Shown here piece by piece: positions 1,919-34,181 of a DNA stretch of 64,000 nucleotides (positions are counted from its first letter, which is position 1; every line of letters begins with the position of its first letter). Below the pieces are notes generated by a model. It was not told where the DNA came from. It saw only the letters and a program-made list of their open reading frames with translations, and made no database searches. The position numbers were made by a program, and so were the translations under genes. This stretch comes from a virus (lineage: Duplodnaviria > Caudoviricetes): the IMG/VR virus record IMGVR_UViG_3300028909_000001; one strand, written 5' to 3'.

Positions 1919-4258
1919 TTACTCAAATGATAACTGCTCTTCCAGTTCTTCTGCAAATTTATGGGTCCCAAATCCTTTGGCATATGCAAGCCCTGGTATT
2001 GGAGATGGTCCCTCCAAACTACTAGAAGCTCCAGTATTGACAGCCTTTATTAATCTACGTTCCAGATTAGTACTATATAAGGTATGCATCCAGTCATGTT
2101 CATGTGCTGGGACATCTAATAATCTTTGCATTTCTGGTTCAAATTCAGGTTTTGTCTCATTTACCGTAACATAATCGATATTATGTTTCTTCAACTCATT
2201 AATTACAGTACTGGTGATTCTAGTTCCTATTGTATAGTGTAATTCAGGTATTTCCAAGTATAAACCTTGAGCCATATCAGTTCTGACCTTCTTACTATTA
2301 GTTCTAGGAGAATAGGCTTTCTCCAGTGTATGATAATTTACTATACTGTCTGGCAAGTTATTCCCTAAGCCTTTAGGATTGGTTATTTTAACATGAGTAA
2401 TTAAACCTTTACTTATAATATCAAAATTACGTTTATTTATTCCACCTAATTGACTAGTTTCAAATGTATCTTTAATAGCTTTGGAGAAATACCTTCTACC
2501 TTCTCCAATACCTTTATGCTTTGTTATTTTAGCTGGATTAGGTATACCATCACTTAACACATCACCTTCTTCAACTAGCTGGCCTGATTTAACCAATACT
2601 TTCAAATCTGGGTGTACATAATATTCTTCAAGTTTTCCATTATCATGCTTAATAACTATATAATGACCTCCTTGTGGTGCTACTCTTACTTCTTCTATCT
2701 TACCATCAGAGTCAGCTATTGGGGCTTCATGGACAAATGAATCCGGGATATTAAATAATTGATTGATGTATTTAAAGCCACCAAATTGATTAGAACCAGT
2801 TGCACTACCTCCCTTGTGCTTACTATTATGTACTATTAAGCCATTCGCTAATACAAATAAAGCATCTTTACTATCTACTTCAATATCCCAACATTGTATT
2901 AATCCTAGATACTCTGGTTTATTGTATAGTACTACCCAATAATCATTTGTAGTAACTACATCTATAGTTTCATCAATATCTTTTAGAGGCATTTCTGTTA
3001 ATACATTACTACATTCCAGGGTTTCACAAAGTATCTTATGATTCTCTGTAGCATATAGTTCAATTACTTTATCTTTATTATCTATAAATATATATTTATT
3101 AACAGGTTGTAATCCTTGATTGAATAACCTTAGAACTTTGACTGGAGAGGTTTGACCAGCGTTATCAGAGCCAAGCACCATATCTCCGACCTTTATATCT
3201 TGAATAGCTTTAATAGAATAATCTGCCATTCTTACTAGTGTTCCTTCAGCTAAACAGTTTAACGCCCCTTGTGCTACTGGTTCTGCTGCTGAAGTACCGG
3301 CAACAACTCCAATAAAAGAATTAAGTTCAGACAAGCCTTTACCTCTGATACCCACACATAATTGACAAAGAGCACTAGAAGTTCCATCATGACTAGCTTC
3401 ACAAGTTATAGGATTTCTAACTACAATCTCTTCTATGCCTTTGCTTTTTAGAATACCCAGCATACTAGAGGTAACTTCATTATTATAGTGATATTTGTCT
3501 ATAGGATGAGCTAAGAACGAACCGATGTAATCATTATCATTTGTTTTTACAGGTATTCCATTATGAGTACCACAATCATGTTCTTCTATCACCATTGTCA
3601 TGTTTGCTCTAGCTAATTGCTTGCCTAAAAACCCACCTTCTGCCACTGATAATTTTGTGGCCGCGCTGGCTTGTCTCGCACCAAAAGTATGTGCCAAATA
3701 TTGGGGCAAGGTTAATCCTTCAGCAAAAGATCTATCAATAATAAAATCAGTTAGAATACCGCCTTTATTATCGTTAACGGCTACTGGGGAGAAAATAGTT
3801 TGACGATATTGTTCGGGACTCCCTCTCGCTCCGGCTTTAACTACCTTGGCTAGAGTCTTATTATCTTTAAGGCCTTCTTCTATTATTTCCTTATTTGCAG
3901 TGTCAGAAAACTTGTTGAGCAAATTTGTTAGTTCATCATCTTCTTTCTTTTTAGGTAACTTTTTATCCTTTATGCTCTTAATCTCTTTATTGAGTTCTTT
4001 AAATCTCTCATCTTTAAAGGAGGGTGGAAGCAAGTCACCTAGTCTGACAGTACTACCCAACCTAGTAGCTGATTCAAACCCAAGTCTAGTTAAATCTGAT
4101 ACTACTTTCTTATAACTATCTTCATTATGCTCTGCTAAATTAGAGAAGAAAGCACCTATATTCTTCTTATCCAAATCTTTGCTTTCTATAAATGAATGAG
4201 AGTTAGCAGGAGAGTAATGCTTAAGCAGGATTTTGCCTACTGTTGTTACCTCAGACAT
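1919..4258 (-). CDS. rpoC: Phage RNA polymerase beta' C-terminal subunit with mini-intein
   Basis: TTVGK, AGARGS, SFAEGL, bridge helix GARQASAATKLSVAEGGFLGKQL, HDCGT...CQLCVG zinc site, trigger loop AAEPVAQGALN|SKHKGG. Confidence 0.93.
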   Translation of the reverse strand: MSEVTTVGKILLKHYSPANSHSFIESKDLDKKNIGAFFSNLAEHNEDSYKKVVSDLTRLGFESATRLGSTVRLGDLLPPSFKDERFKELNKEIKSIKDKKLPKKKEDDELTNLLNKFSDTANKEIIEEGLKDNKTLAKVVKAGARGSPEQYRQTIFSPVAVNDNKGGILTDFIIDRSFAEGLTLPQYLAHTFGARQASAATKLSVAEGGFLGKQLARANMTMVIEEHDCGTHNGIPVKTNDNDYIGSFLAHPIDKYHYNNEVTSSMLGILKSKGIEEIVVRNPITCEASHDGTSSALCQLCVGIRGKGLSELNSFIGVVAGTSAAEPVAQGALNCLAEGTLVRMADYSIKAIQDIKVGDMVLGSDNAGQTSPVKVLRLFNQGLQPVNKYIFIDNKDKVIELYATENHKILCETLECSNVLTEMPLKDIDETIDVVTTNDYWVVLYNKPEYLGLIQCWDIEVDSKDALFVLANGLIVHNSKHKGGSATGSNQFGGFKYINQLFNIPDSFVHEAPIADSDGKIEEVRVAPQGGHYIVIKHDNGKLEEYYVHPDLKVLVKSGQLVEEGDVLSDGIPNPAKITKHKGIGEGRRYFSKAIKDTFETSQLGGINKRNFDIISKGLITHVKITNPKGLGNNLPDSIVNYHTLEKAYSPRTNSKKVRTDMAQGLYLEIPELHYTIGTRITSTVINELKKHNIDYVTVNETKPEFEPEMQRLLDVPAHEHDWMHTLYSTNLERRLIKAVNTGASSSLEGPSPIPGLAYAKGFGTHKFAEELEEQLSFE
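2825..3256 (-). mobile_element. Mini-intein (144 aa, no endonuclease) in the beta' trigger loop
   Basis: Starts CLAEGTLV, has block B ATENHKIL, ends LIVHN followed by Ser+1. Confidence 0.93.
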
Positions 4259-6587: not shown

Positions 6588-8309
6588 TCATTTCTCTATT
6601 TCTATGTTGTCTCCTGGCTCTAAATCACCTCTGTTATATGCAGCAACTACTTCTTGTTCAGTTTTATATTTTTTAGGAGTGTTATGTTTGTTTTCTGTAC
6701 TTAGTCCATAAAGGCCCAAAGCTGCTTCATTACTAGGGATTAATACAGGTTGAAAAGATTTAACAGATAATAAATTTTTGCTAGGCATCATTTTAGCTAT
6801 AACTTCTTTACGTGCTTCTTCAGTGCCTGGAATATGGACATTAAGTTGGTCTCCGTCGGAATTTTTTGTATATCCTCCTATAGTTAAGAAACTTCCGTAG
6901 TTTGGTATTTCCAAATCGTAAGCAGTATTAGATTGTAACTTAGTTACTCTTTTAACTTTCTTCCATTTTAAACTACCATTATACACCTTACCTAAATATG
7001 ATATCCATTGTTCATTATTCTTTAACTCAACTAGAAGTATTTCAATTATTTCTTTTAAAGTGCTTTTACGAAATCTATCTGTTTTAAATTCCTGGCTTAA
7101 TCTATATTTTAAATTATAAAGTTCCTTATTCTTTTGTAATTTATATTTATTATTAATAGCTGTAATTATATTTTTTTTAACAGTTTCTGAAGGAAGTGGT
7201 ACTAAGTCATTAAAGTTATCACCTATACCTGTTATATCTTTTAAGCTATTCTCTAATTTTTCCTTCTTCAACTCATGACTTATTCTAAATTTTGTTCTTT
7301 CAACTAACTTTTTAAATGTCCCAGTATGAAATCTGAAGGAGAAATTATCTTTACTACTCAGCCTAGATGCCCCTTTATATACTCCATAATTTAAATTTAA
7401 CCGTTTACTCATATATCTTAAACCGTTAATTAAATGAATTGATGATGTGCAGATACTTATATTTATAACTGTTTTATTAGAAGAACTGACACTTACTGTT
7501 CCATCAGTTGAGATTAACCCATCTAATATACCTAGTAGATGTTCTTCAGGACCGTTTAAACTAAAAGTAGGTATTTTCTTATTAAAAGCTCCACTCCCTA
7601 TCTGCTCTTTTAACCACTTATTAAACCAGGCACAAGAAGCTCTAGTTTTACCTCTAGAAGTAAATTGCCCCATCATATTCTCACTAACTCTATCTATTTC
7701 TTTAACTCCATTTTCATAAGGAAGATATTCACTATTACATAAATCAGCAAATACTTTTCTATTCATTAATTTTTCTTTGGTAGAACCGGCTAAGAAAAGT
7801 TGATTAGCATTATCTACCCAACCATCACCTAAAACCATTCCTATAAAAAGTCCGGTTTTATAATTAAGTTGCAAGTTAAATGAATTTTTAACAAATCCTT
7901 TTCCTCGTATTCCTTTCATTCCTCTAGTACCCATCATACCTTCAGCTAATACACTTGATTGAATATTGGGTGCTATAGTTGTAACATCACTAGGACAATA
8001 CCTACCTACTGCCTCTTCGGTATCAACTTCTTCAATACCACTATCAGTATAAGCTAATAAACTATGATCTTTGGCTGCAAATATAAAATCCCCATCTATA
8101 AATTGTACCAAATATAAAGGTACATTAGGATGAATCGAGAATGTCTTTGGATTTACCCAATCTACTTCACCAGTTATAAGGTTTAATGATTTTACTTCTA
8201 CATTACTAGGTACATCATAAAGGATATTACCATTTATAGTAGTAGTGGCTGAATTTTCTATTCTAGGGAAATCTGAAATAGGTACTAGTGTATATTTATA
8301 ATTAATCAT
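6588..8309 (-). CDS. rpoC: C-terminal split-intein half with LAGLIDADG endonuclease, fused to beta' middle segment (SDGDQLNVHIP...)
   Basis: Block B AAKDHSLL, LAGLIDADG motifs GMVLGDGW and DGLISTDGT, intein end GGYTKN|S; C-extein matches the DGDQMAVHVP region of bacterial beta'. Confidence 0.9.
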   Translation of the reverse strand: MINYKYTLVPISDFPRIENSATTTINGNILYDVPSNVEVKSLNLITGEVDWVNPKTFSIHPNVPLYLVQFIDGDFIFAAKDHSLLAYTDSGIEEVDTEEAVGRYCPSDVTTIAPNIQSSVLAEGMMGTRGMKGIRGKGFVKNSFNLQLNYKTGLFIGMVLGDGWVDNANQLFLAGSTKEKLMNRKVFADLCNSEYLPYENGVKEIDRVSENMMGQFTSRGKTRASCAWFNKWLKEQIGSGAFNKKIPTFSLNGPEEHLLGILDGLISTDGTVSVSSSNKTVINISICTSSIHLINGLRYMSKRLNLNYGVYKGASRLSSKDNFSFRFHTGTFKKLVERTKFRISHELKKEKLENSLKDITGIGDNFNDLVPLPSETVKKNIITAINNKYKLQKNKELYNLKYRLSQEFKTDRFRKSTLKEIIEILLVELKNNEQWISYLGKVYNGSLKWKKVKRVTKLQSNTAYDLEIPNYGSFLTIGGYTKNSDGDQLNVHIPGTEEARKEVIAKMMPSKNLLSVKSFQPVLIPSNEAALGLYGLSTENKHNTPKKYKTEQEVVAAYNRGDLEPGDNIEIEK

Positions 8310-8382
8310 ATAGACACAATACGGTGACTAGTTGAACTTGTCAATTAATTTTCTCTCTATAAATAATATAATCTACAATACT
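6861..8382 (-). mobile_element. Split intein in the RNAP catalytic motif (IntN 13 aa at 8344-8382; IntC at 6861-8309)
   Basis: Joining the exteins gives YGAD+SDGDQ; IntN SIVDYIIYREKIN is followed by TGA. Confidence 0.85.
8316..8344 (-). promoter_or_regulatory. sigma70-type promoter for a leaderless IntC transcript
   Basis: TTGACA(8344-8339)-N17-TATTGT(8321-8316)-N6-ATG(8309). Confidence 0.75.
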
Positions 8383-11094
8383 ATCCGCACCATACCCCTT
8401 AAATACTAATGGATTCATTTTAATAGTTTTATCTTTAGAATTTGGATTAGCAATTAAATTAAACCCTAATAGATTATATTTATGCCAGGCTGGATCTCGC
8501 GTTATAATACCAGGTCTTACTGCCATCTCTTCCTTTAATGCCATAACTGCTAATGGACTATGTTTTTTAACATAATCAACCGCACTAATAGCTGGTACAC
8601 CCTTCATAACCAACCTTCTAATAACAAAAGGTTTATATATCTGCCACAGCATATCTTGAGGTACACTAGCCTGGTCTACATCCAATCTAGTATCTGGAGT
8701 TAACACAGCTCTTCCCACCAAATCCAGACTCTTATTAACCACCTTACTCTGAAACATTGTACTTTTAGCCGTTCCACCCTTTAATCCAAACATAGTAGCT
8801 AATATACCTTTAACATTCTTATCCTGGTGTTTCTTATTAATTGGATCACCCAAACCAAAGGCAGCTTTTACTCCATCATATTCATTTTGTTTTAATTTCC
8901 TAACTACTTCGTCCGGCACATTCTCAGTATTTTTAAGTGCATTGTTATTTAGTATGAGGTCTTTATATAGATTATTAACATCACTAGTTAATACTACATC
9001 ACCCATCTTACTAGCAGGTCTGTATTGGGCTGGTAGAATAGGTACTTTATGCAACATCAAATCTTTAGGATGTAACTTATGTTCTTTTAGTGTAGTGAGA
9101 AATTCTAACAATTTAACGGCATCATCTCTTCTAGTCTTCTTCTCACTACCTATATACTTCTTCATTTCTTCTATCTTCTTATCCAGATCTATATTATTAA
9201 GGGCTTTTTCCATTTCCCCATCCACTACCATATCATTAAACTTAAACTTGGTAACTCCTAACAACTTTCTGAGATAATCCTCACTAATAGGATTAGGTAT
9301 GGGATGATTAAGATTTATGTGATTAAACTTGTCACCTAATATGCCTATTATATTAGGATCAAATAGTCCGCCAGGTTCATGTATTAGTTCTTCTTGATGT
9401 GGCTTGAATAATGAAGGTTTCTTAATTTCACCATTACTCAAAGCAGTAGTATCCTTATCTGTTAAAGGTAGGATATTAAAGGTATTACCAACTCTATCTA
9501 CATTAATACCGGCAGCTTTTAAACTATCTATGAACTTGTTAAAGATGAATGGAACTTTAGGGCTGGGTGGGGTTTGGCCCAATTTAATAGCACGCCAGAA
9601 TTCATCATTCTGAGTACCTTTAACAGTACCTATATCCTCCAATACATGTCTGACATCATGACTTAGCAAAGCTGTAGTACCTAAATTTCCTATTCTCTTT
9701 GATGAACCACCTTCCACTGCTGACTTACTTGGTTGCCGGTCGAAACTGTATCCGGACCCCTGACTTCTAGTACTTAGTTTATCTTCACTAATATGAGTTA
9801 ACCTACTATAGAATAATGGACCTACAACTGCTTCAATATTTCTACCAGTAATTGGATCATATAGTTGTTCAGTATCATTTATATTATTCTTCTTTAATAC
9901 ATTAATTACATTCTTAATAGATGAATCCTTTCTAAACTGATCCATTTTAATAGTCTTACCAGTCTTCTCAGCTAATTTACCAAGGCCTAGAGTTATGGCT
10001 AAGGCTGGTGCAACTCTTGACGTGATGGACATGGAGTTAAGCATGATATCAACTGGCTTCCCATTAGGTAGTAGTGGAGCTTGTGAGTCTGATACAATCT
10101 TCGTTACACCCTTAGCTCCAAAGTAATTAGAAATCTTATCACCAGGTAATAGACTTCTTACCGTCTTGATATGTACTGTAATAAGTGGGCCATGTTTGGT
10201 TACATCCACTACTTCTCCATCATGTTCGTAGTCCCAGGCTTCTGAATTATCTTTGAATGCATGTTTTAATACTTTACTCAGCTTACCTAATGCCAAATCT
10301 GTACTCTTTAATGCTCTGGGTGAGTAAGCCAGGATTACCGGGTCTCCAGCTTTCAATCTAGACCCTACTATAACCACTCCATCTGAATCTATATTTTTAA
10401 TTTGATTATTCGTATATTTATTAGGAAATAGTGCTACAAATTTATCCTTGCCTGCCTCTACTCCAAATTTCTCTTCAATACTAAAATTGATCATTTGTTC
10501 TGCTGCCAACTTTTTAGCACCACTTTCAGTCACTGCAAAAGCATCCTCAAAGTTGTCTGAGCGGTACGGGATTATAGCAGTAGTAAGGTTAGTTCCCATC
10601 GCCATATTACCTTCTTTATCATTATAATTACTGTAAGCTATTACTTCATTAGTTTTAACTTTATCACCAACCTTCACTTTAGGGGTATGAGTAATAAAGC
10701 TTTTCCTGCCTAAATGAAAGTTATTATATAGTTGATAGGTAGACTTGGTTTTATCTGTATTATCTACTTTAATATGATTTTCAGTAACTTCAGTAACAGT
10801 ACCAGGTTTAGTTGCAGTTACAGATAAATAATGTTTACCATATAGTTCTTGAGTACTTTCTTTGTTAGTGTCATCTGAACTTTCTACTAACGGACGTTCA
10901 GGATTTACTAAAGGTATAGCTTGGAGAGAAGCCTTGGCTCCTAGTAACACACGCCCGCCGGAAACTGAATTTAGCCCAGTAATCATGTTAGTAGGTAAAG
11001 CAAATAAATCCCTACTCGAAGGCATGGATATATGATCTTCATTTAGTTTGTCCACCTTCTCAAAATTTCCCTTATTAAGTACAGTATAACTCAT
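8341..11094 (-). CDS. rpoB: RNA polymerase beta C-terminal / beta' N-terminal fusion ending in IntN
   Basis: Beta motifs RVLLGAKASLQAIPL, NFEDAFAV, GDKISNYFGAKG, RLTHISEDK; beta' motifs GGLFDPNIIG, VPILPAQYRP, SDVNNLY, TRDPAWHK, NPLVFKGYGAD; start moved to ATG 11094 (TATAAT-N6-ATG). Confidence 0.93.
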   Translation of the reverse strand: MSYTVLNKGNFEKVDKLNEDHISMPSSRDLFALPTNMITGLNSVSGGRVLLGAKASLQAIPLVNPERPLVESSDDTNKESTQELYGKHYLSVTATKPGTVTEVTENHIKVDNTDKTKSTYQLYNNFHLGRKSFITHTPKVKVGDKVKTNEVIAYSNYNDKEGNMAMGTNLTTAIIPYRSDNFEDAFAVTESGAKKLAAEQMINFSIEEKFGVEAGKDKFVALFPNKYTNNQIKNIDSDGVVIVGSRLKAGDPVILAYSPRALKSTDLALGKLSKVLKHAFKDNSEAWDYEHDGEVVDVTKHGPLITVHIKTVRSLLPGDKISNYFGAKGVTKIVSDSQAPLLPNGKPVDIMLNSMSITSRVAPALAITLGLGKLAEKTGKTIKMDQFRKDSSIKNVINVLKKNNINDTEQLYDPITGRNIEAVVGPLFYSRLTHISEDKLSTRSQGSGYSFDRQPSKSAVEGGSSKRIGNLGTTALLSHDVRHVLEDIGTVKGTQNDEFWRAIKLGQTPPSPKVPFIFNKFIDSLKAAGINVDRVGNTFNILPLTDKDTTALSNGEIKKPSLFKPHQEELIHEPGGLFDPNIIGILGDKFNHINLNHPIPNPISEDYLRKLLGVTKFKFNDMVVDGEMEKALNNIDLDKKIEEMKKYIGSEKKTRRDDAVKLLEFLTTLKEHKLHPKDLMLHKVPILPAQYRPASKMGDVVLTSDVNNLYKDLILNNNALKNTENVPDEVVRKLKQNEYDGVKAAFGLGDPINKKHQDKNVKGILATMFGLKGGTAKSTMFQSKVVNKSLDLVGRAVLTPDTRLDVDQASVPQDMLWQIYKPFVIRRLVMKGVPAISAVDYVKKHSPLAVMALKEEMAVRPGIITRDPAWHKYNLLGFNLIANPNSKDKTIKMNPLVFKGYGADSIVDYIIYREKIN

Positions 11095-11536: not shown

Positions 11537-12206
11537 GTTAGATGCATTTATTAATGGTTTTATCAAGGCTGCTGGCCCACTCCCTCCACCTCCTCCACCT
11601 CCTACACCTCCTACACCTCCAAAAATTCCGATGATTTCATTACCACACAATGCTTATACTGTTGGTGGTCTCCCTCCAAATATGCATAATTTTGTTAATA
11701 AAGGTGGTAATACCCTTAATATAAATGCTCACGGTGGTCCTGATAGTGCTATTAATGGAGAATATGCATTTCAAAGTGATTCTAATAATTCTAAAAACTT
11801 GCTTTATAACAATGAACCACTAACTTATACTCCTCAAACATTGGCTAAACTTATTGGTCCAGCTACTAACAATATCAATAATATTTATACTACTGCTTGT
11901 AATGGTGGGGATTGCTCCAATACTAATGTGAGTCCAAACGAAGTGCTTAAAGGGTTTGCTACTCCAGCTATGTACCGTAAATTATTCCCTAATCTTACTA
12001 ACGTTGTTCAAATCCCTCCCAGGCATTATGGTCCATTAATTCCAAGTCAATTTAAGACTAATGAATACCCAGACGTAGTGAATATAATAAATAGAATTAT
12101 TAAAGATAGGAATCCTAATGATCCAATAACTACAAGCTTGCCTCATCAATATAATCTACAAGGTGGTACTAATTGGGTGGATAAAGGGACTTACTATAAT
12201 TACTGA
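11529..12206 (+). CDS. FINGFIKAA-leader protein with Pro linker and possible clan CD cysteine protease domain
   Basis: MNKLDAFINGFIKAAG, poly-Pro, LNINAHGG (H68) ... IYTTACN (C124). Confidence 0.6.
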   Translation: MNKLDAFINGFIKAAGPLPPPPPPPTPPTPPKIPMISLPHNAYTVGGLPPNMHNFVNKGGNTLNINAHGGPDSAINGEYAFQSDSNNSKNLLYNNEPLTYTPQTLAKLIGPATNNINNIYTTACNGGDCSNTNVSPNEVLKGFATPAMYRKLFPNLTNVVQIPPRHYGPLIPSQFKTNEYPDVVNIINRIIKDRNPNDPITTSLPHQYNLQGGTNWVDKGTYYNY

Positions 12207-12207
12207 T

Positions 12208-15063
12208 ATGACAGACCGACACAATGTATATGTAGTTGAATTGGATAAGGAGGTCTTAGCTAAAAAAAAGTTTTTAAAGTTGAATCCTAACTACAATCCA
12301 GAACTACCTCCACTTTATGTAGGAGAGACTGGTTTGAGTCCTGAAGCTAGATTCGAGAAACATAAAACTGGACTAAAAGCCAATATCTGGGTAAAGAATC
12401 ATGGGCTTAGACTTAGGCCTGAACATTATAAAGATTTAAATCCCATGCCATTTCATAAAGCTGAAAGAACCGAGGAATGGTTGGCAAAGAAGTTAAGGGC
12501 TGAGGGTTATCCAGTAGTAGGTGGGAATCCTAGAACCGTACCTTTGAAGAAGGAGGCTGGTGAAGAAGCGTTACAACCTCAACAAGCTAGAGTAATTAAG
12601 AAGATTCAAGATAAGAATACTTCAGGGTTAGTGCTTTATCATGGGATGGGTAGTGGAAAAGGATTGGTTATAGGCTCAAAGATATTAACACCTACAGGGT
12701 GGATAAATATAGAAGATATAAAACAAAACACAGAAGTGATTTCTGTTAATGGTGTGAAAGCTAATGTGACTGGAGTCTATCCTCAAGGGTATAAAGATGT
12801 GTATAAAATTACTTTTAGGGATGGTGCTACTATAGAATGTGATGATTCTCATTTATGGTTCACTCAATCTAGATGTGAACGTAAAAATTACGTTAAAAGC
12901 AAGGATCAATTTAAATATAGGTGGGTAGGTAAAGTCAGGAGTACAAGCGAAATTAAAGATACAGTATTATCTAATGATAATAGTTTAAATTATACTATTC
13001 CTATTGTGAAACCTATTCATTTTAAATATAGAAAACTTCCACTAGACCCGTATTTTGTTGGTTTGATTTTAGGAGATGGTAGTATTTGTGGAGGTGGCTG
13101 TGCGATAACAACAGCAGATGACGAAATTCTGCAATCAATTAAGTCTTTATTTCCAAATTTTACTCTTAAAAAATATTCTAAATATACTTATGGATTAGGT
13201 AAACCAAAAGGATATAACAGTTACATTGTTCAAGCATTTAAAGAATTAAAATTACAAGGTATGAATTGTTTTACAAAATTTATACCTGATATTTATATGT
13301 TTAACACAGTGAAATCTCGCATAGCATTATTACAAGGGTTAATGGATACTGATGGTACTGTAAGTAAAGATGGTATGGCTATAGTTTATGAGTCCGTCTC
13401 AAAACAGTTAGCAGATGGTGTGCAATTCCTTGTTGAATCACTAGGAGGTTTAGCAAAGATAACAACTAGAATTCCAACATATTCATATAAAGGAGAAAAA
13501 AAGAAAGGAGCTTTATGTTATAGGGTTTGGTTAAGTTTACCACCAAATATCAATCCATTTAGATTACACAGAAAAGCAATTCAAGTAATTCCTAAGACTA
13601 AATATAAACCAACTAGATATATAAAAAGTATAGAATATGTTGGAAAAAAAGAGACAATCTGTATTGCAATCGATGACCCTTCTCATCTATATATTACTGA
13701 ACATTGTATAGTTACGCACAATACACGCGAAAGTATTGAATCCTGGAAAGCATTAGGATTACCTAAGACTGATATCATTGTTCCAGCTTCATTAAAATCC
13801 AACTATCGTAAAGAGTTGCAGAGATGGTATGGCAATTCTAATCCTTCTAATATCAACTTAATTAGTCAACAAAGATTTGCTAATTCTAAGTTAAATACTC
13901 CAATATACAATACTGGTTTGCAGATAGTAGATGAAGCTCAAAAAGCTAAAAATAGTAATAGTGAATTATATCAAGCATTGGTTAAAACGAATCCAGCCAA
14001 GCGCCTTCTCCTTTCAGGAACTCCAATTCTAAATGATCCTACTGAATTAAGTAATCTTGTTAACTTAGTAGCAAAGAAACAAGTATTACCTAATAATTTA
14101 TCTGAGTTTAAAAAACAATATTTTAAACAGGAAGAAGTTAAACCTGGATTTTTTGGTAGATTAATGGGAGTTTCTCCAGGCATTCAATATAAGCTACAGA
14201 ATAAAGCTCAACTATCTAAGATTCTGGATAAGTATGTTGACTACTATAAACCTACTCAAGAAGGATATCCTACTGTGACGGAGCAAGAAGTTAATGTTCC
14301 TATGGGTGCTAAACAACAAGAGATATATGATACAATACTCGGAAAGACACCATTTTGGACACGTTATCGAATTAAACATAATTTACCTCCTGGACGTGGT
14401 GAATTAGAAGGTATGCGAGCATTTTTAAGTGGACCTAGACAAGTAAGCAATTCAACTGCTGGATTTACTAAAAATTTAAGAGACGTGGAATCCCCTAAAA
14501 TAGATGCAGCTTTTAAGTTTTTACAAATACAATTAAAACAAGATCCAAACTATAAAGCTCTAGTATATAGTAATTATCTTAATAATGGTCTTAGACCTTA
14601 TGAATCATTATTAAGAAAGAATAATATACCATTTGGAGAGTTTAGTGGAGCTGTAACACCTACTATAAGAGACCAGGCAGTTAAAGATTATAATGCTAAT
14701 AAATTAAGAGCATTATTAGTATCAGGAGCTGGGGCTGAAGGATTGGATTTGAAGGCTACAAATTTGACACAACTTTTGGAACCTTTTTGGAACCTTCCTA
14801 AAGAGAGACAAGTTATCGGAAGATCAGTACGTTTCCATAGTCATGATAGTTTGCCTCCAGAAAAGAGAAAGGTTTTAGTGCAACGTTATTTTGCCACACC
14901 AAAACCTAGTTTATTGGATAAACTTACATTCAATCCCAAACCTACTGGTACAGATTCATATATTAGAAATTCAATCAGTAAACCAAAAGATAATCTTAAT
15001 CAAGAAATAACTAATTTAATAGCCAAGAATCAAGAACCTAAATCTTGGCTTAACTACAATTAA
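12208..15063 (+). CDS. GIY-YIG-like domain fused to an SNF2/SF2 helicase with intein
   Basis: VYVVEL...LYVGETG; Walker A GMGSGK|T, DEAQ, LLLSGTP, GAEGLDL, QVIGRSVR; start moved to ATG 12208 (TATAAT-N7-ATG). Confidence 0.9.
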   Translation: MTDRHNVYVVELDKEVLAKKKFLKLNPNYNPELPPLYVGETGLSPEARFEKHKTGLKANIWVKNHGLRLRPEHYKDLNPMPFHKAERTEEWLAKKLRAEGYPVVGGNPRTVPLKKEAGEEALQPQQARVIKKIQDKNTSGLVLYHGMGSGKGLVIGSKILTPTGWINIEDIKQNTEVISVNGVKANVTGVYPQGYKDVYKITFRDGATIECDDSHLWFTQSRCERKNYVKSKDQFKYRWVGKVRSTSEIKDTVLSNDNSLNYTIPIVKPIHFKYRKLPLDPYFVGLILGDGSICGGGCAITTADDEILQSIKSLFPNFTLKKYSKYTYGLGKPKGYNSYIVQAFKELKLQGMNCFTKFIPDIYMFNTVKSRIALLQGLMDTDGTVSKDGMAIVYESVSKQLADGVQFLVESLGGLAKITTRIPTYSYKGEKKKGALCYRVWLSLPPNINPFRLHRKAIQVIPKTKYKPTRYIKSIEYVGKKETICIAIDDPSHLYITEHCIVTHNTRESIESWKALGLPKTDIIVPASLKSNYRKELQRWYGNSNPSNINLISQQRFANSKLNTPIYNTGLQIVDEAQKAKNSNSELYQALVKTNPAKRLLLSGTPILNDPTELSNLVNLVAKKQVLPNNLSEFKKQYFKQEEVKPGFFGRLMGVSPGIQYKLQNKAQLSKILDKYVDYYKPTQEGYPTVTEQEVNVPMGAKQQEIYDTILGKTPFWTRYRIKHNLPPGRGELEGMRAFLSGPRQVSNSTAGFTKNLRDVESPKIDAAFKFLQIQLKQDPNYKALVYSNYLNNGLRPYESLLRKNNIPFGEFSGAVTPTIRDQAVKDYNANKLRALLVSGAGAEGLDLKATNLTQLLEPFWNLPKERQVIGRSVRFHSHDSLPPEKRKVLVQRYFATPKPSLLDKLTFNPKPTGTDSYIRNSISKPKDNLNQEITNLIAKNQEPKSWLNYN
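12661..13722 (+). mobile_element. Class 3-like intein (354 aa) with LAGLIDADG endonuclease
   Basis: Starts GLVIGSKILTPTGW; DDSHLW, TICIAI and IVTHN|T give the WCT signature; GLILGDG and GLMDTDG motifs. Confidence 0.9.
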
Positions 15064-15314
15064 GCTTTCTCTTCCTTTTCCTGCTCCTTAGCTAATTGCA
15101 GTATTTTCCGCATCAAGTCTGGGGTGAATCTTAGCGGCTGATCTCCGAAATCAAATACATTGCATAGTTCATCCATTACCGAACTAGCGATTGTATTTAT
15201 AACTACCTCAGGTTTGCTAAAGTTATTCACATCTTTAAGTAATGCCTCAACTCCAGAAGTAACTCCACTAACCACTGAATTTTCTGTAACGATATAAGAA
15301 TTAATATTTATCAT
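15060..15314 (-). CDS. Hypothetical protein
   Basis: ORF preceded by TTGACA-N16-TATATT-N7-ATG. Confidence 0.7.
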   Translation of the reverse strand: MININSYIVTENSVVSGVTSGVEALLKDVNNFSKPEVVINTIASSVMDELCNVFDFGDQPLRFTPDLMRKILQLAKEQEKEEKA

Positions 15315-33214: not shown

Positions 33215-33499
33215 ATGTCGAACGAAACACAATTAGAACAGCAATTGAATGCTGAATGGAGAAAAACTATTAAAGATAATCTTGAAGAACTCAGGACTGG
33301 TCAAAAACAATTAGCTAAGGATATTACTGATATTAAGCTAAGTTGTGCTCAAGCAGATGAAGTAAAAAGTCTGAGAGAAAAGGTCGAAAAACTTGAATTA
33401 TCTAAAGCTAAAACTACTGGAGTATTGGTAGCCGTAAATGTGATATTAATTTTTGCGGGCTGGTGTATTCAGACTTTACTGCTTGTACATCATAGTTAA
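33215..33499 (+). CDS. Coiled-coil protein with C-terminal TM helix (holin/XhlA-like)
   Basis: Heptad-rich N-terminus and hydrophobic C-terminus. Confidence 0.55.
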   Translation: MSNETQLEQQLNAEWRKTIKDNLEELRTGQKQLAKDITDIKLSCAQADEVKSLREKVEKLELSKAKTTGVLVAVNVILIFAGWCIQTLLLVHHS

Positions 33500-34146
33500 G
33501 CAGGCCTTCTTCTTTCATTTCTTGGTAAGTTGAATTGTAGATATTTCTCATACTTTCTAGTCAGTCCAATTCTGTCTTCTAGAAAGCCTTGATAAATATA
33601 GTTACCGAATTTATAACCACCACAAATGCTAGGTATAACTATTCTAGAACCCTTATGTCCAGTTTTTTTATTAATCTCCCTCCCTATTCTATAATGAATC
33701 TCCATAGGTAATACTAATTTCTCAAAAGCAGACCAATCTTGAGTGTAGGGACCACAAATACTATAAGAACAATGACCATCTCTGGATATACAAAAACAAC
33801 CATCCCCATCACTGTAACCCCTCCACCAGTAATGAGTTAGGTTTTCAGGTATAATGCTTAATATTGTAGGAGCTTGATCTTTACTTCTATAATTGTAACT
33901 AATTAATTTAGTTGCTAATTCTACACTACCTTTTTGAAAACTCATTTGTAATTGCCCTGGTGGATTTGTTTTTTGTATATTTCTACGTATATTCCAATTC
34001 CAGGCTTTCATAAGTGTTGGTTCAATAATTACTGCATCAACTTGTTTTATAGCTATTTTAATTTTATTTTCTTTAGATATAGACCCGTCGGCCCAGATAA
34101 ATCCTAACGTATATGCTGTCTCTGCTGTTATATTAGTTAAATCCAT
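33496..34146 (-). mobile_element. Free-standing LAGLIDADG homing endonuclease
   Basis: AYTLGFIWADG and WWRGYSDGDG; start moved to ATG 34146 behind TTGACA-N17-TACTGT-N6. Confidence 0.85.
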
Positions 34147-34152
34147 ATAATG

Positions 34153-34181
34153 ACAGTACACATTAGCTACCACGCTGTCAA
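34153..34181 (-). promoter_or_regulatory. sigma70-type leaderless promoter of the endonuclease
   Basis: TTGACA-N17-TACTGT-N6-ATG. Confidence 0.7.

Follow-up and report, generated by a model that had tools for sequence, protein, structure and literature searches.

Among natural atypical split inteins, PolB16 OarG, from a sheep-gut metagenome, has an N-terminal fragment (IntN) of 15 amino acids (aa), described as "the shortest characterized", and uses serine at both nucleophile positions, Ser1 and Ser+1 (PMC10189870). AceL-TerL and GOS-TerL, also natural atypical split inteins, have an IntN of 25 and 37 aa, respectively (PMC11766414), and the engineered S1 inteins Ssp DnaX S1 and Ssp DnaB S1 splice with an IntN of 11 aa (PMC3620165, PMC3443213; table in PMC11766414). 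In the "fractured genes" of Dassa et al. (2009), gene breaking was tied to endonuclease expression, and a free-standing endonuclease gene separated the two halves at the canonical site of endonuclease insertion (PMC2677866). A further way of bridging an interrupted phage gene is known from T4 gene 60, in which a non-coding gap of approximately 50 nucleotides (nt) is passed by translational bypass (PMC5462505). Here, we describe the junction at positions 8300-8349 of a 64,000-nt stretch of Caudoviricetes DNA (hereafter the window; IMG/VR record IMGVR_UViG_3300028909_000001), where two open reading frames on the minus strand, ORF1 and ORF2, meet within the gene of a phage RNA polymerase. We consider it likely that this junction is the split point of a natural S1-type split intein with an IntN of 13 aa, an endonuclease inside the C-terminal fragment (IntC), joining of the two products by trans-splicing, and a conserved sigma-70-like promoter at the break.

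The window comes from a larger peat-soil phage contig of IMG/VR (151 kb), which was estimated to be 69% complete; related contigs measured approximately 190-230 kb. The first reading of the DNA, made from the sequence only, had held that the order at the junction argues against sequencing error, and this was borne out. The stretch is no assembly error, because the ORF1 protein cluster was present on 34 contigs and because all sampled words of the stretch were found in Logan contigs of 14 peat runs, each of them flagged as a possible source. A blastn comparison with named phages gave no match, and an Rfam search of the window at gathering thresholds returned nothing.

Architecture of the intein and its host gene

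The Pfam domains of ORF1 were RNA_pol_Rpb2_6, then Rpb1_1 and Rpb1_2; since Rpb2 domain 6 preceded Rpb1 domains 1 and 2, ORF1 was assigned as a fusion of the C-terminal part of the beta subunit with the N-terminal part of beta'. ORF2 contained a LAGLIDADG domain (LAGLIDADG_3, above its own cut-off) and the end of Rpb1 domain 2; its intein-splicing match stayed sub-threshold. In approximately 100 intein-less homologues of 991-998 aa, the corresponding region read uninterrupted as FKGYGADSDGDQLNV (GAD-SDGDQ; GADSDGDQLNV), and the ORF2 tail SDGDQLNVHIP aligned to NADFDGDQMAVHVP of a solved bacterial beta' (NADFDGDQ). The C-extein as a whole aligned to the bacterial beta' segment NADFDGDQMAVH, and removal of the intein restored the host motif. 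Matches by tblastn to named phages (Salmonella phage Arash and Vibrio phages, at approximately 30% identity) ended at residue 904, the last extein residue. From the intein-less homologues, the bacterial beta' alignment, and the end point of the tblastn matches, the intein was taken to span S905 of ORF1 to N483 of ORF2, with Ser at +1, inside the catalytic Asp triad loop. These alignments place the insertion between the first and second Asp of the loop, at GAD/SDGDQ (the slash marks the insertion point), in a fused beta-beta' gene. A second beta' catalytic domain was not found in the 151 kb examined.

The AlphaFold model of ORF2 (pLDDT 81.6) matched the endonuclease-bearing inteins TliVMA (7qss; E 3e-18), PI-PfuI, and PI-SceI (the matched structures included 1dq3 and 2cw7), and it was through this match that the Hint fold was recognized, the Pfam profile PF14890 alone being sub-threshold. 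The splicing nucleophiles were Ser1 (S905), the terminal N483, and S484 at +1. The two fragments, of 13 and 483 aa, lay on separate ORFs, as in atypical split inteins. The element is not an endonuclease-free mini-intein, as IntC keeps a LAGLIDADG domain under purifying selection; an endonuclease inside IntC is a departure from the described natural split inteins and no bar to the mechanism. Complex prediction with ORF2 and the last 60 residues of ORF1 gave an ipSAE of 0.83, vs 0.01 for the best of three controls; of the solved complexes, 51 of 78 attained that mark, as did 2 of 108 mismatched pairs. Runs agreed in no fewer than 48% of contacts, and the partner pLDDT was at least 41. The predicted interface comprised ORF1 residues 904-917 only, antiparallel with ORF2 residues 4-11, and contacts were made with ORF2 residues 2-12, 36-40, and 474-481, the last of these near the C-terminal junction. 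The prediction, which resembles solved inteins, suggested that the IntN and IntC pieces would fit together as a Hint fold; it speaks for a predicted association, not for binding itself.

The same arrangement was present in two further lineages. In lineage B, P0002 (917 aa; 81% identical over the compared region) ended in GADSTIDYIVYREKLTS and was followed 24 nt on by P0121 (568 aa), starting MNNYKY; this pair was present on six contigs from different samples. In lineage C, P0007 (916 aa; 77%) ended in SVIDHIIYREKLTS, and P0271 (562 aa), starting MNTYKY, again followed after 24 nt. The window and both relatives thus had in common a layout of stop, short spacer, and ATG, with the ATG at the same codon (MINYKY in the window), and the tails STIDYIVYREKLTS and SVIDHIIYREKLTS of the relatives were homologous to IntN. 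Ser1, H60, H82, D465, N483, and S+1 were invariant in the three split lineages. In the lineage B contig L002, the spacer was 24 nt and in frame; at positions 2835-2864 of that contig, the two intein ORFs shared one frame and had a single TAA and eight sense codons between them, compared with a +1 shift in the window.

Between the window and L002, the proportion of synonymous differences (pS) was 0.67-0.78, which is saturated, and the proportion of nonsynonymous differences (pN) was 0.275 in the N-terminal part of the Hint domain and 0.15-0.17 in the exteins; the endonuclease had a pN of 0.22, compared with a pS of approximately 0.73. The common layout, the saturated synonymous sites, and the low pN marked the split as evolutionarily maintained. 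Because three lineages with saturated synonymous sites have it in common, the split is old and predates their divergence, and the pattern of substitution points to purifying selection on the Hint and endonuclease parts since then. In the extein tree, the three split lineages fell inside one clade of ten with 100/99 support, interleaved with intein-less alleles. Such interleaving is the patchy pattern usual for inteins, and the tree is compatible with repeated loss or homing. The features of the locus are collected in Table 1.

Table 1. Features of the split intein locus and of a comparison site, in window coordinates.
Feature	Position	Strand	Description	Basis
ORF1	11094-8341	minus	917 aa from its own ATG; ends ...FKGYGAD-SIVDYIIYREKIN-TGA	
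ORF2	8309-6588	minus	573 aa; starts MINYKYTLVPISDFP	
N-extein	8383..11094	minus	fusion of RNA polymerase beta (C-terminal part) with beta' (N-terminal part); residues 1-904 of P0001, ending ...NPLVFKGYGAD	Pfam, intein-less homologues, tblastn
IntN	8344..8382	minus	13 codons, SIVDYIIYREKIN; Ser1 and first beta-strand (block A)	sequence, homologous tails, complex model
IntC	6861..8309	minus	ORF2 residues 1-483; remaining Hint fold and LAGLIDADG endonuclease, ending ...GGYTKN	Pfam, AlphaFold model, conserved H60, H82, D465, N483
LAGLIDADG homing endonuclease domain	7275..7892	minus	in IntC, approximately residues 140-345; GDG at 161-163, DG at 269-270	Pfam, conserved motifs, model
C-extein	6591..6860	minus	SDGDQLNVHIP..., 90 residues; rest of catalytic Asp loop and next beta' segment	aligns to bacterial beta' NADFDGDQMAVHVP; +1 Ser conserved
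First ATTAATT	8343..8349	minus	codes I-N and first stop base	within chance; missing in L002
Second ATTAATT	8300..8306	minus	codes I-N after start Met	sequence
TGA stop of ORF1	8341..8343	minus	overlaps -35 hexamer	sequence
Spacer, stop to ATG	8310..8340	minus	31 nt, +1 frame shift, stops in both relevant frames	sequence; L002 homologue 24 nt, in frame behind single TAA
-35-like hexamer TTGACA	8339..8344	minus		10/12 matches including -10; TTGAC conserved in L002; genome peak 35-39 nt before starts
-10-like hexamer TATTGT	8316..8321	minus	6 nt before ATG, leaderless geometry	TCACCGTAT..TGT identical in L002
Comparison site TTGACA-17-TACTGT	34153..34181	minus	6 nt before ATG 34146 of free-standing endonuclease gene (33496-34146)	pattern match; phrog_4645

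The promoter-like spacer and the internal start

The layout of the junction was exactly as the sequence-only reading had given it on the minus strand: the direct repeat ATTAATT at 8349-8343 and 8306-8300, the TGA over TTGACA, 17 nt to TATTGT, and 6 nt to the ATG of ORF2 at 8309-8307. Deletion of one repeat together with the interval (43 nt) yielded AGA GAG AAA ATT AAT TAT AAA TAT, which reads REKINYKY in frame. With 5 nt (ATTAA) removed, the spacer of the window read KLTSSTSHRIVSI, resembling the in-frame KLTS-stop-ADHRILSP of L002. Two simple ways of joining the frames were rejected. A plain frameshift cannot join ORF1 and ORF2, because the ORF2 frame has a TAG within the spacer and stops thus close both frames. 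Stop-codon recoding was rejected as well, as the stops differ (TGA in the window, TAA in L002) and the frames differ in the window.

The junction DNA was compared between the window and L002, such that promoter conservation refers to one pair of sequences. The L002 junction read AAG TTGACT, 17 nt, TATATT, 7 nt, ATG. In the alignment of the two spacers, TTGAC was identical at 5/5 positions, the next 12 nt at 5/12, TCACCGTAT at 9/9, and TGT at 3/3. Because this identity stands against a saturated neutral background, the spacer holds selected nucleotides, and these coincide with the -35 element and the -10 region. With TTGACA-17-TATTGT-6-ATG and 10 of 12 consensus matches, the spacer fell within the range for a leaderless sigma-70 promoter (16-18 nt between the hexamers, the -10 ending 6-8 nt before ATG).

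The geometry recurred elsewhere in this phage. The sequence-only reading had seen it again in front of a free-standing endonuclease gene at 34181, and this agreed with our counts, as TTGACA-N17-TAYTGT-N6-ATG occurred twice in the window (8344 and 34181) vs 0.09 occurrences expected. The product of that gene (33496-34146) matched the phrog_4645 endonuclease (E 1.4e-20) and was without close relation to the intein endonuclease. The phage genes lacked Shine-Dalgarno (SD) sequences, and TTGAC peaked 35-39 nt before ATG (8/170 genes vs approximately 1 per 5-nt bin elsewhere). The looser pattern TTGAC[AT]-N16-19-TAnn[GAT]T-N4-9-ATG was found 10 times, compared with 2.4 in shuffled sequence, and eight of these ATGs opened ORFs of at least 67 aa. 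These counts indicate that the promoter-like geometry is real and recurrent. A class of gene starts with TTGAC[AT]-16/18-TAnnnT ending 6-8 nt before ATG was also observed, for example at 15314, 41152, 48197, 34146, and 57476.

Evidence from RNA came from assembled contigs of RNA-seq libraries, which show no start, strand, or level, are uninformative in the parts left uncovered, and derive from libraries that can contain DNA. Contig X15 (8275-8614) ran across the junction without a joint and retained all 43 nt. Where such contigs covered the site, removal of the interval at the RNA level was not seen, and read-through RNA across the junction probably exists.

The start within the first loop of the intein was found to be a trait of the family. 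With 80 contiguous homologues aligned at the DFP motif, a total of 68 Met residues lay in a 10-column window 19-28 residues upstream, vs approximately 16-20 expected (an estimate from the typical Met frequency). Pro or Leu was often the next residue, and the loop was otherwise poorly conserved. Of the contiguous inteins at this insertion site, the closest was P0108 (1436 aa, on a 5.6-kb Logan contig), which read GAD/SILGVVKVYEQGEGKFVNIADVP. Because P0108 reads through there, the break corresponds to the turn between the first and second beta-strands. In P0108, Asn replaced the block B His and Gln replaced the terminal Asn, and splicing of this intein may follow a variant route or have been lost. 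Distant homologous inteins had a variable loop of approximately 5-30 residues at the break point and were sited four residues further on, at DFDGD/T. The family thus used two insertion points four residues apart, GAD/SDGDQ in the window and P0108, and DFDGD/T in the distant members (window 6861-8382 vs P0124-P0146); the first residue of the DFDGD/T inteins was S, C, A, G, T, or Q.

Split relatives began at the loop Met. At L135:1300-1510, the upstream ORF ended in DFDGD/SAADLIRIEVTSEIFEKMLK, giving an IntN of 20 aa, and the 145-nt spacer held TTGACA-16-TATAGT (11/12, with a TG-extended -10), AAAGGA, and ATG. At L045:3370-3510, the upstream ORF ended 39 residues past DYDGD (IntN of 39 aa), followed by a 12-nt spacer with TAA TAG, GGAG, and ATG; the first IntN residue after DYDGD was Gln, which is non-canonical. 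P0200 lay 31 nt after a polymerase ORF of 1395 aa. Comparable signals were present in contiguous inteins: L137:650-715 carried an in-frame 12/12 TTGACA-17-TATAAT, GAGGA, and ATG, and in L138 a TTGACA stood exactly 35 nt before the internal Met of P0129. The signals of L137 and L138 suggest that the endonuclease-bearing part may be expressed separately even without a split. An SD-like tetramer 10-15 nt before the Met was found at 7/7 loci outside the SD-less clade, vs a background of 12% for ATG triplets of these loci (p approximately 4e-7, assuming independent loci). A TTGAC[AT] within 150 nt was found in 5/7 lineages, with the window and L002 counted as one, vs 10.5% of ATG triplets in control loci. 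Because contiguous relatives already have the Met, the SD sequence, and often TTGACA in the loop, the comparison indicates a start site older than the split. Independent splits in this loop were present in at least two other lineages, L135 and L045.

The following mechanism would account for these observations. The intein gene is cut after the first beta-strand, such that ORF1 ends in IntN and TGA, and the ATG of ORF2 follows 31 nt later; ORF2 supplies what remains of the Hint fold, together with the endonuclease and C-extein, and the two proteins would be translated separately. IntN would dock as a strand onto IntC, and trans-splicing would then link GAD to SDGDQ, producing the Mg-binding loop. 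As the spacer promoter adjoins the ATG, ORF2 is probably also expressed from its own leaderless transcript. The promoter, ribosome-binding site, and Met internal to the family, together with closure of the upstream frame at that point, would have given rise to splits in at least three lineages, and a recent 43-nt insertion would have played no part.

A broader proposal, which we put forward tentatively and hold to be possible rather than probable, is that this intein family carries, in the loop behind its first strand, a conserved internal expression module made up of a sigma-70-like promoter, a Met, and either a leaderless start or a ribosome-binding site, by which the endonuclease part can be made alone. 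This selfish module would repeatedly (at least three times here) have turned contiguous inteins into S1-type splits, which may be a general route by which such inteins are born. Maturation of the active site in the present phage would then need two separately controlled products.

Competing accounts of the break

Several points weigh against a trans-splicing split intein at this junction. Protein splicing is a property that we infer; the Pfam Intein_splicing profile (PF14890) scored 27.7 vs a cut-off of 35.8, and the penultimate intein residue was Lys, not His. In the complex model, the partner pLDDT was low (41-45), and the pass obtained in that prediction may partly reflect likeness to, or memory of, solved inteins. 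Conservation of the hexamers came from a single pairwise comparison, as two DNA versions of the close junction were available. RNA-library contigs extended upstream of the proposed start at 8309 (X16 ended at 8324, and X15 bridged the site), and co-transcription alone could be sufficient for ORF2. Readthrough of the single TAA in L002 would be compatible with the sequence there; it cannot apply to the window.

The split had been attributed, from the sequence only, to a 43-nt promoter cassette with a 7-bp direct repeat. Taken literally, a mobile cassette would recently have broken a contiguous intein and left a 7-bp target-site duplication. The repeat ATTAATT does flank the interval exactly, excision restores the frame, and in the "fractured genes" model invading elements supply stop, start, and control signals (PMC2677866). 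However, the repeat was within chance, because 7-mers recurring 25-60 nt downstream began at approximately 1.1% of genome positions, and roughly one junction in ten would show one. In L002, the same TTGAC...TCACCGTAT..TGT...ATG core stood without the repeat around its 24-nt in-frame spacer, and a second copy of the cassette core was found neither in the window nor in the genome; neither the repeat beyond chance nor the extra copies that would identify an insertion with target-site duplication were thus observed. A recent origin is also at odds with a split old enough to be common to three synonymous-saturated lineages and with a start site older than the split itself. We consider this origin unlikely. 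The wider idea that selection for independent endonuclease expression split the intein stood in part: a selected split point with a promoter-like element, conserved hexamers, and the SD, ATG, and TTGACA of the family all speak for it, and the 43-nt cassette as its origin was not retained.

Decay of the locus is another account, by which the broken intein no longer splices and the polymerase is either non-functional or has its chains held non-covalently by the intein halves. It would agree with splicing being inferred, with the missing penultimate His, and with the non-canonical residues of the contiguous P0108 (block B Asn and terminal Gln). A decaying element would not be expected to keep Ser1, H60, H82, D465, Asn483, and Ser+1 throughout the three split lineages, nor a pN for the Hint and endonuclease segments that is far below a saturated pS. 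Furthermore, the interrupted loop was the sole beta' catalytic loop in the DNA examined, and a polymerase would hardly tolerate an insert of approximately 500 residues within its Asp triad loop. Decay is, in our view, quite improbable.

A translational bypass like that of T4 gene 60 had also been raised for this junction. Take-off would occur at AAU (or AUU) before UGA, with a slide of 43 nt to a matching landing codon, yielding one contiguous cis-splicing precursor. The window offers an identical ATT AAT before the stop and after the ATG (AAT...AAT with TGA), a stop directly after the take-off codon, and a weak hairpin beginning at the stop codon; the codon pair, stop, and hairpin are among the gene 60 features listed in PMC5462505. 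The hairpin, however, was no better than shuffles (minimum free energy z of -0.4 to -0.8), folding of the L002 region was worse than random (z of +0.7 to +1.6), and the structure was not conserved. L002 read TCT TAA, with a different stop and no identical take-off and landing pair (synonymous TCA only downstream), and no nascent-peptide signal for bypass or similarity to the gene 60 peptide was evident. With an ATG kept at the same codon in three synonymous-saturated lineages, which bypass does not need, and with an SD sequence before the ATG in other lineages split in this loop, one of which has two tandem stops, bypass is a very improbable explanation.

Searches for further relatives and for other inteins completed the analysis. 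Among IMG/VR contigs searched with ORF2, with alignments of ORF2, or with P0129, no relative was found. A scan of IMG/VR for the junction DNA pattern listed 80 loci, which were taken as chance matches because none encoded a relative by tblastn. A scan of JGI metagenomes gave chiefly C-extein-only matches and 0 new split junctions. The short homologues P0154, P0151, and P0126 were considered as further splits and rejected, as they are contiguous inteins truncated at contig ends. An intein-like ORF of 739 aa, P0260, was set aside; on its contig of 3.4 kb (L044:1-400), it begins 9 nt downstream of a ribosomal protein L1 gene, an odd context for this intein family. Within the window, an SNF2-type helicase gene on the plus strand (12163-15063) holds another LAGLIDADG intein, with Pfam LAGLIDADG_3 and Hom_end matches between the helicase domains. 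On the minus strand, the beta' C-terminal gene (1919-4258; Rpb1 domains 4-5) gave Hint and Hom_end-associated Hint matches just under their cut-offs, and may, judging by these matches, hold a third intein in polymerase genes.

Comparison with described split inteins and gene breaks

Of the described systems, PolB16 OarG comes closest to the split intein proposed here, which is like it in its split near the N-terminus after the first strand, its short IntN, its Ser1 and Ser+1 (oxyester chemistry), and its occurrence in a probable phage, within a gene for a nucleic-acid polymerase. The IntN of 13 aa (15 aa in the two sister lineages) is shorter than that of PolB16, the shortest characterized natural one at 15 aa. 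The hosts also differ, with PolB there and, here, the beta' subunit of a multisubunit RNA polymerase, at its catalytic Asp loop, and the IntC of approximately 483 aa carries a LAGLIDADG endonuclease, whereas that of PolB16 has 168 aa. The likeness seen is one of architecture, and splicing of the present element is a prediction from its sequence. In ORF2, the invariant His60 (position 73 of the intein) is about as far from the N-terminus as His68 in the NX motif of PolB16, the two being compared by distance alone. AceL-TerL and GOS-TerL have in common with this element a short IntN, a long IntC, and an origin in metagenomic phage genes, but they are hosted by terminase genes, have a longer IntN, lack an endonuclease domain, and carry Cys at one or both nucleophile positions. 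The engineered S1 inteins are likewise split after the first beta-strand and support the ability of an IntN of 11-13 residues to trans-splice; they are artificial mini-inteins with Cys1, in contrast to the natural and evolutionarily maintained intein described here.

These differences could be of practical and evolutionary interest. An intein with Ser at both nucleophile positions and a short N-terminal piece is of the type wanted for semisynthetic, thiol-independent labelling, to which it would be suited because its N-terminal piece is accessible as a peptide. Natural split inteins described so far are without an endonuclease domain; by keeping one, the present element may stay mobile as a unit. 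Contiguous relatives with an internal start at the place where several lineages are split provide a testable route to split inteins. If our reading is true, the Mg-binding Asp loop of an essential phage enzyme exists only after protein trans-splicing.

As in the "fractured genes", phage enzyme genes are broken here by split inteins, with stop, start, and control signals at the break. Here, however, the endonuclease stands in frame in IntC and has no separate ORF at the break, the spacer is 31 nt, and the break lies in the first loop. T4 gene 60 likewise has a gap of approximately 50 nt in a phage gene, with a matched codon pair and an adjacent stop; the present junction differs in having no conserved hairpin, in lacking the matched codons in L002, and in its conserved initiator ATG, and a split intein would explain all lineages. 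Relative to these systems, the features that set this case apart are the 13-aa IntN, the endonuclease in IntC, the insertion site in the Asp loop of an RNA polymerase, and an internal start module that is present across the family.

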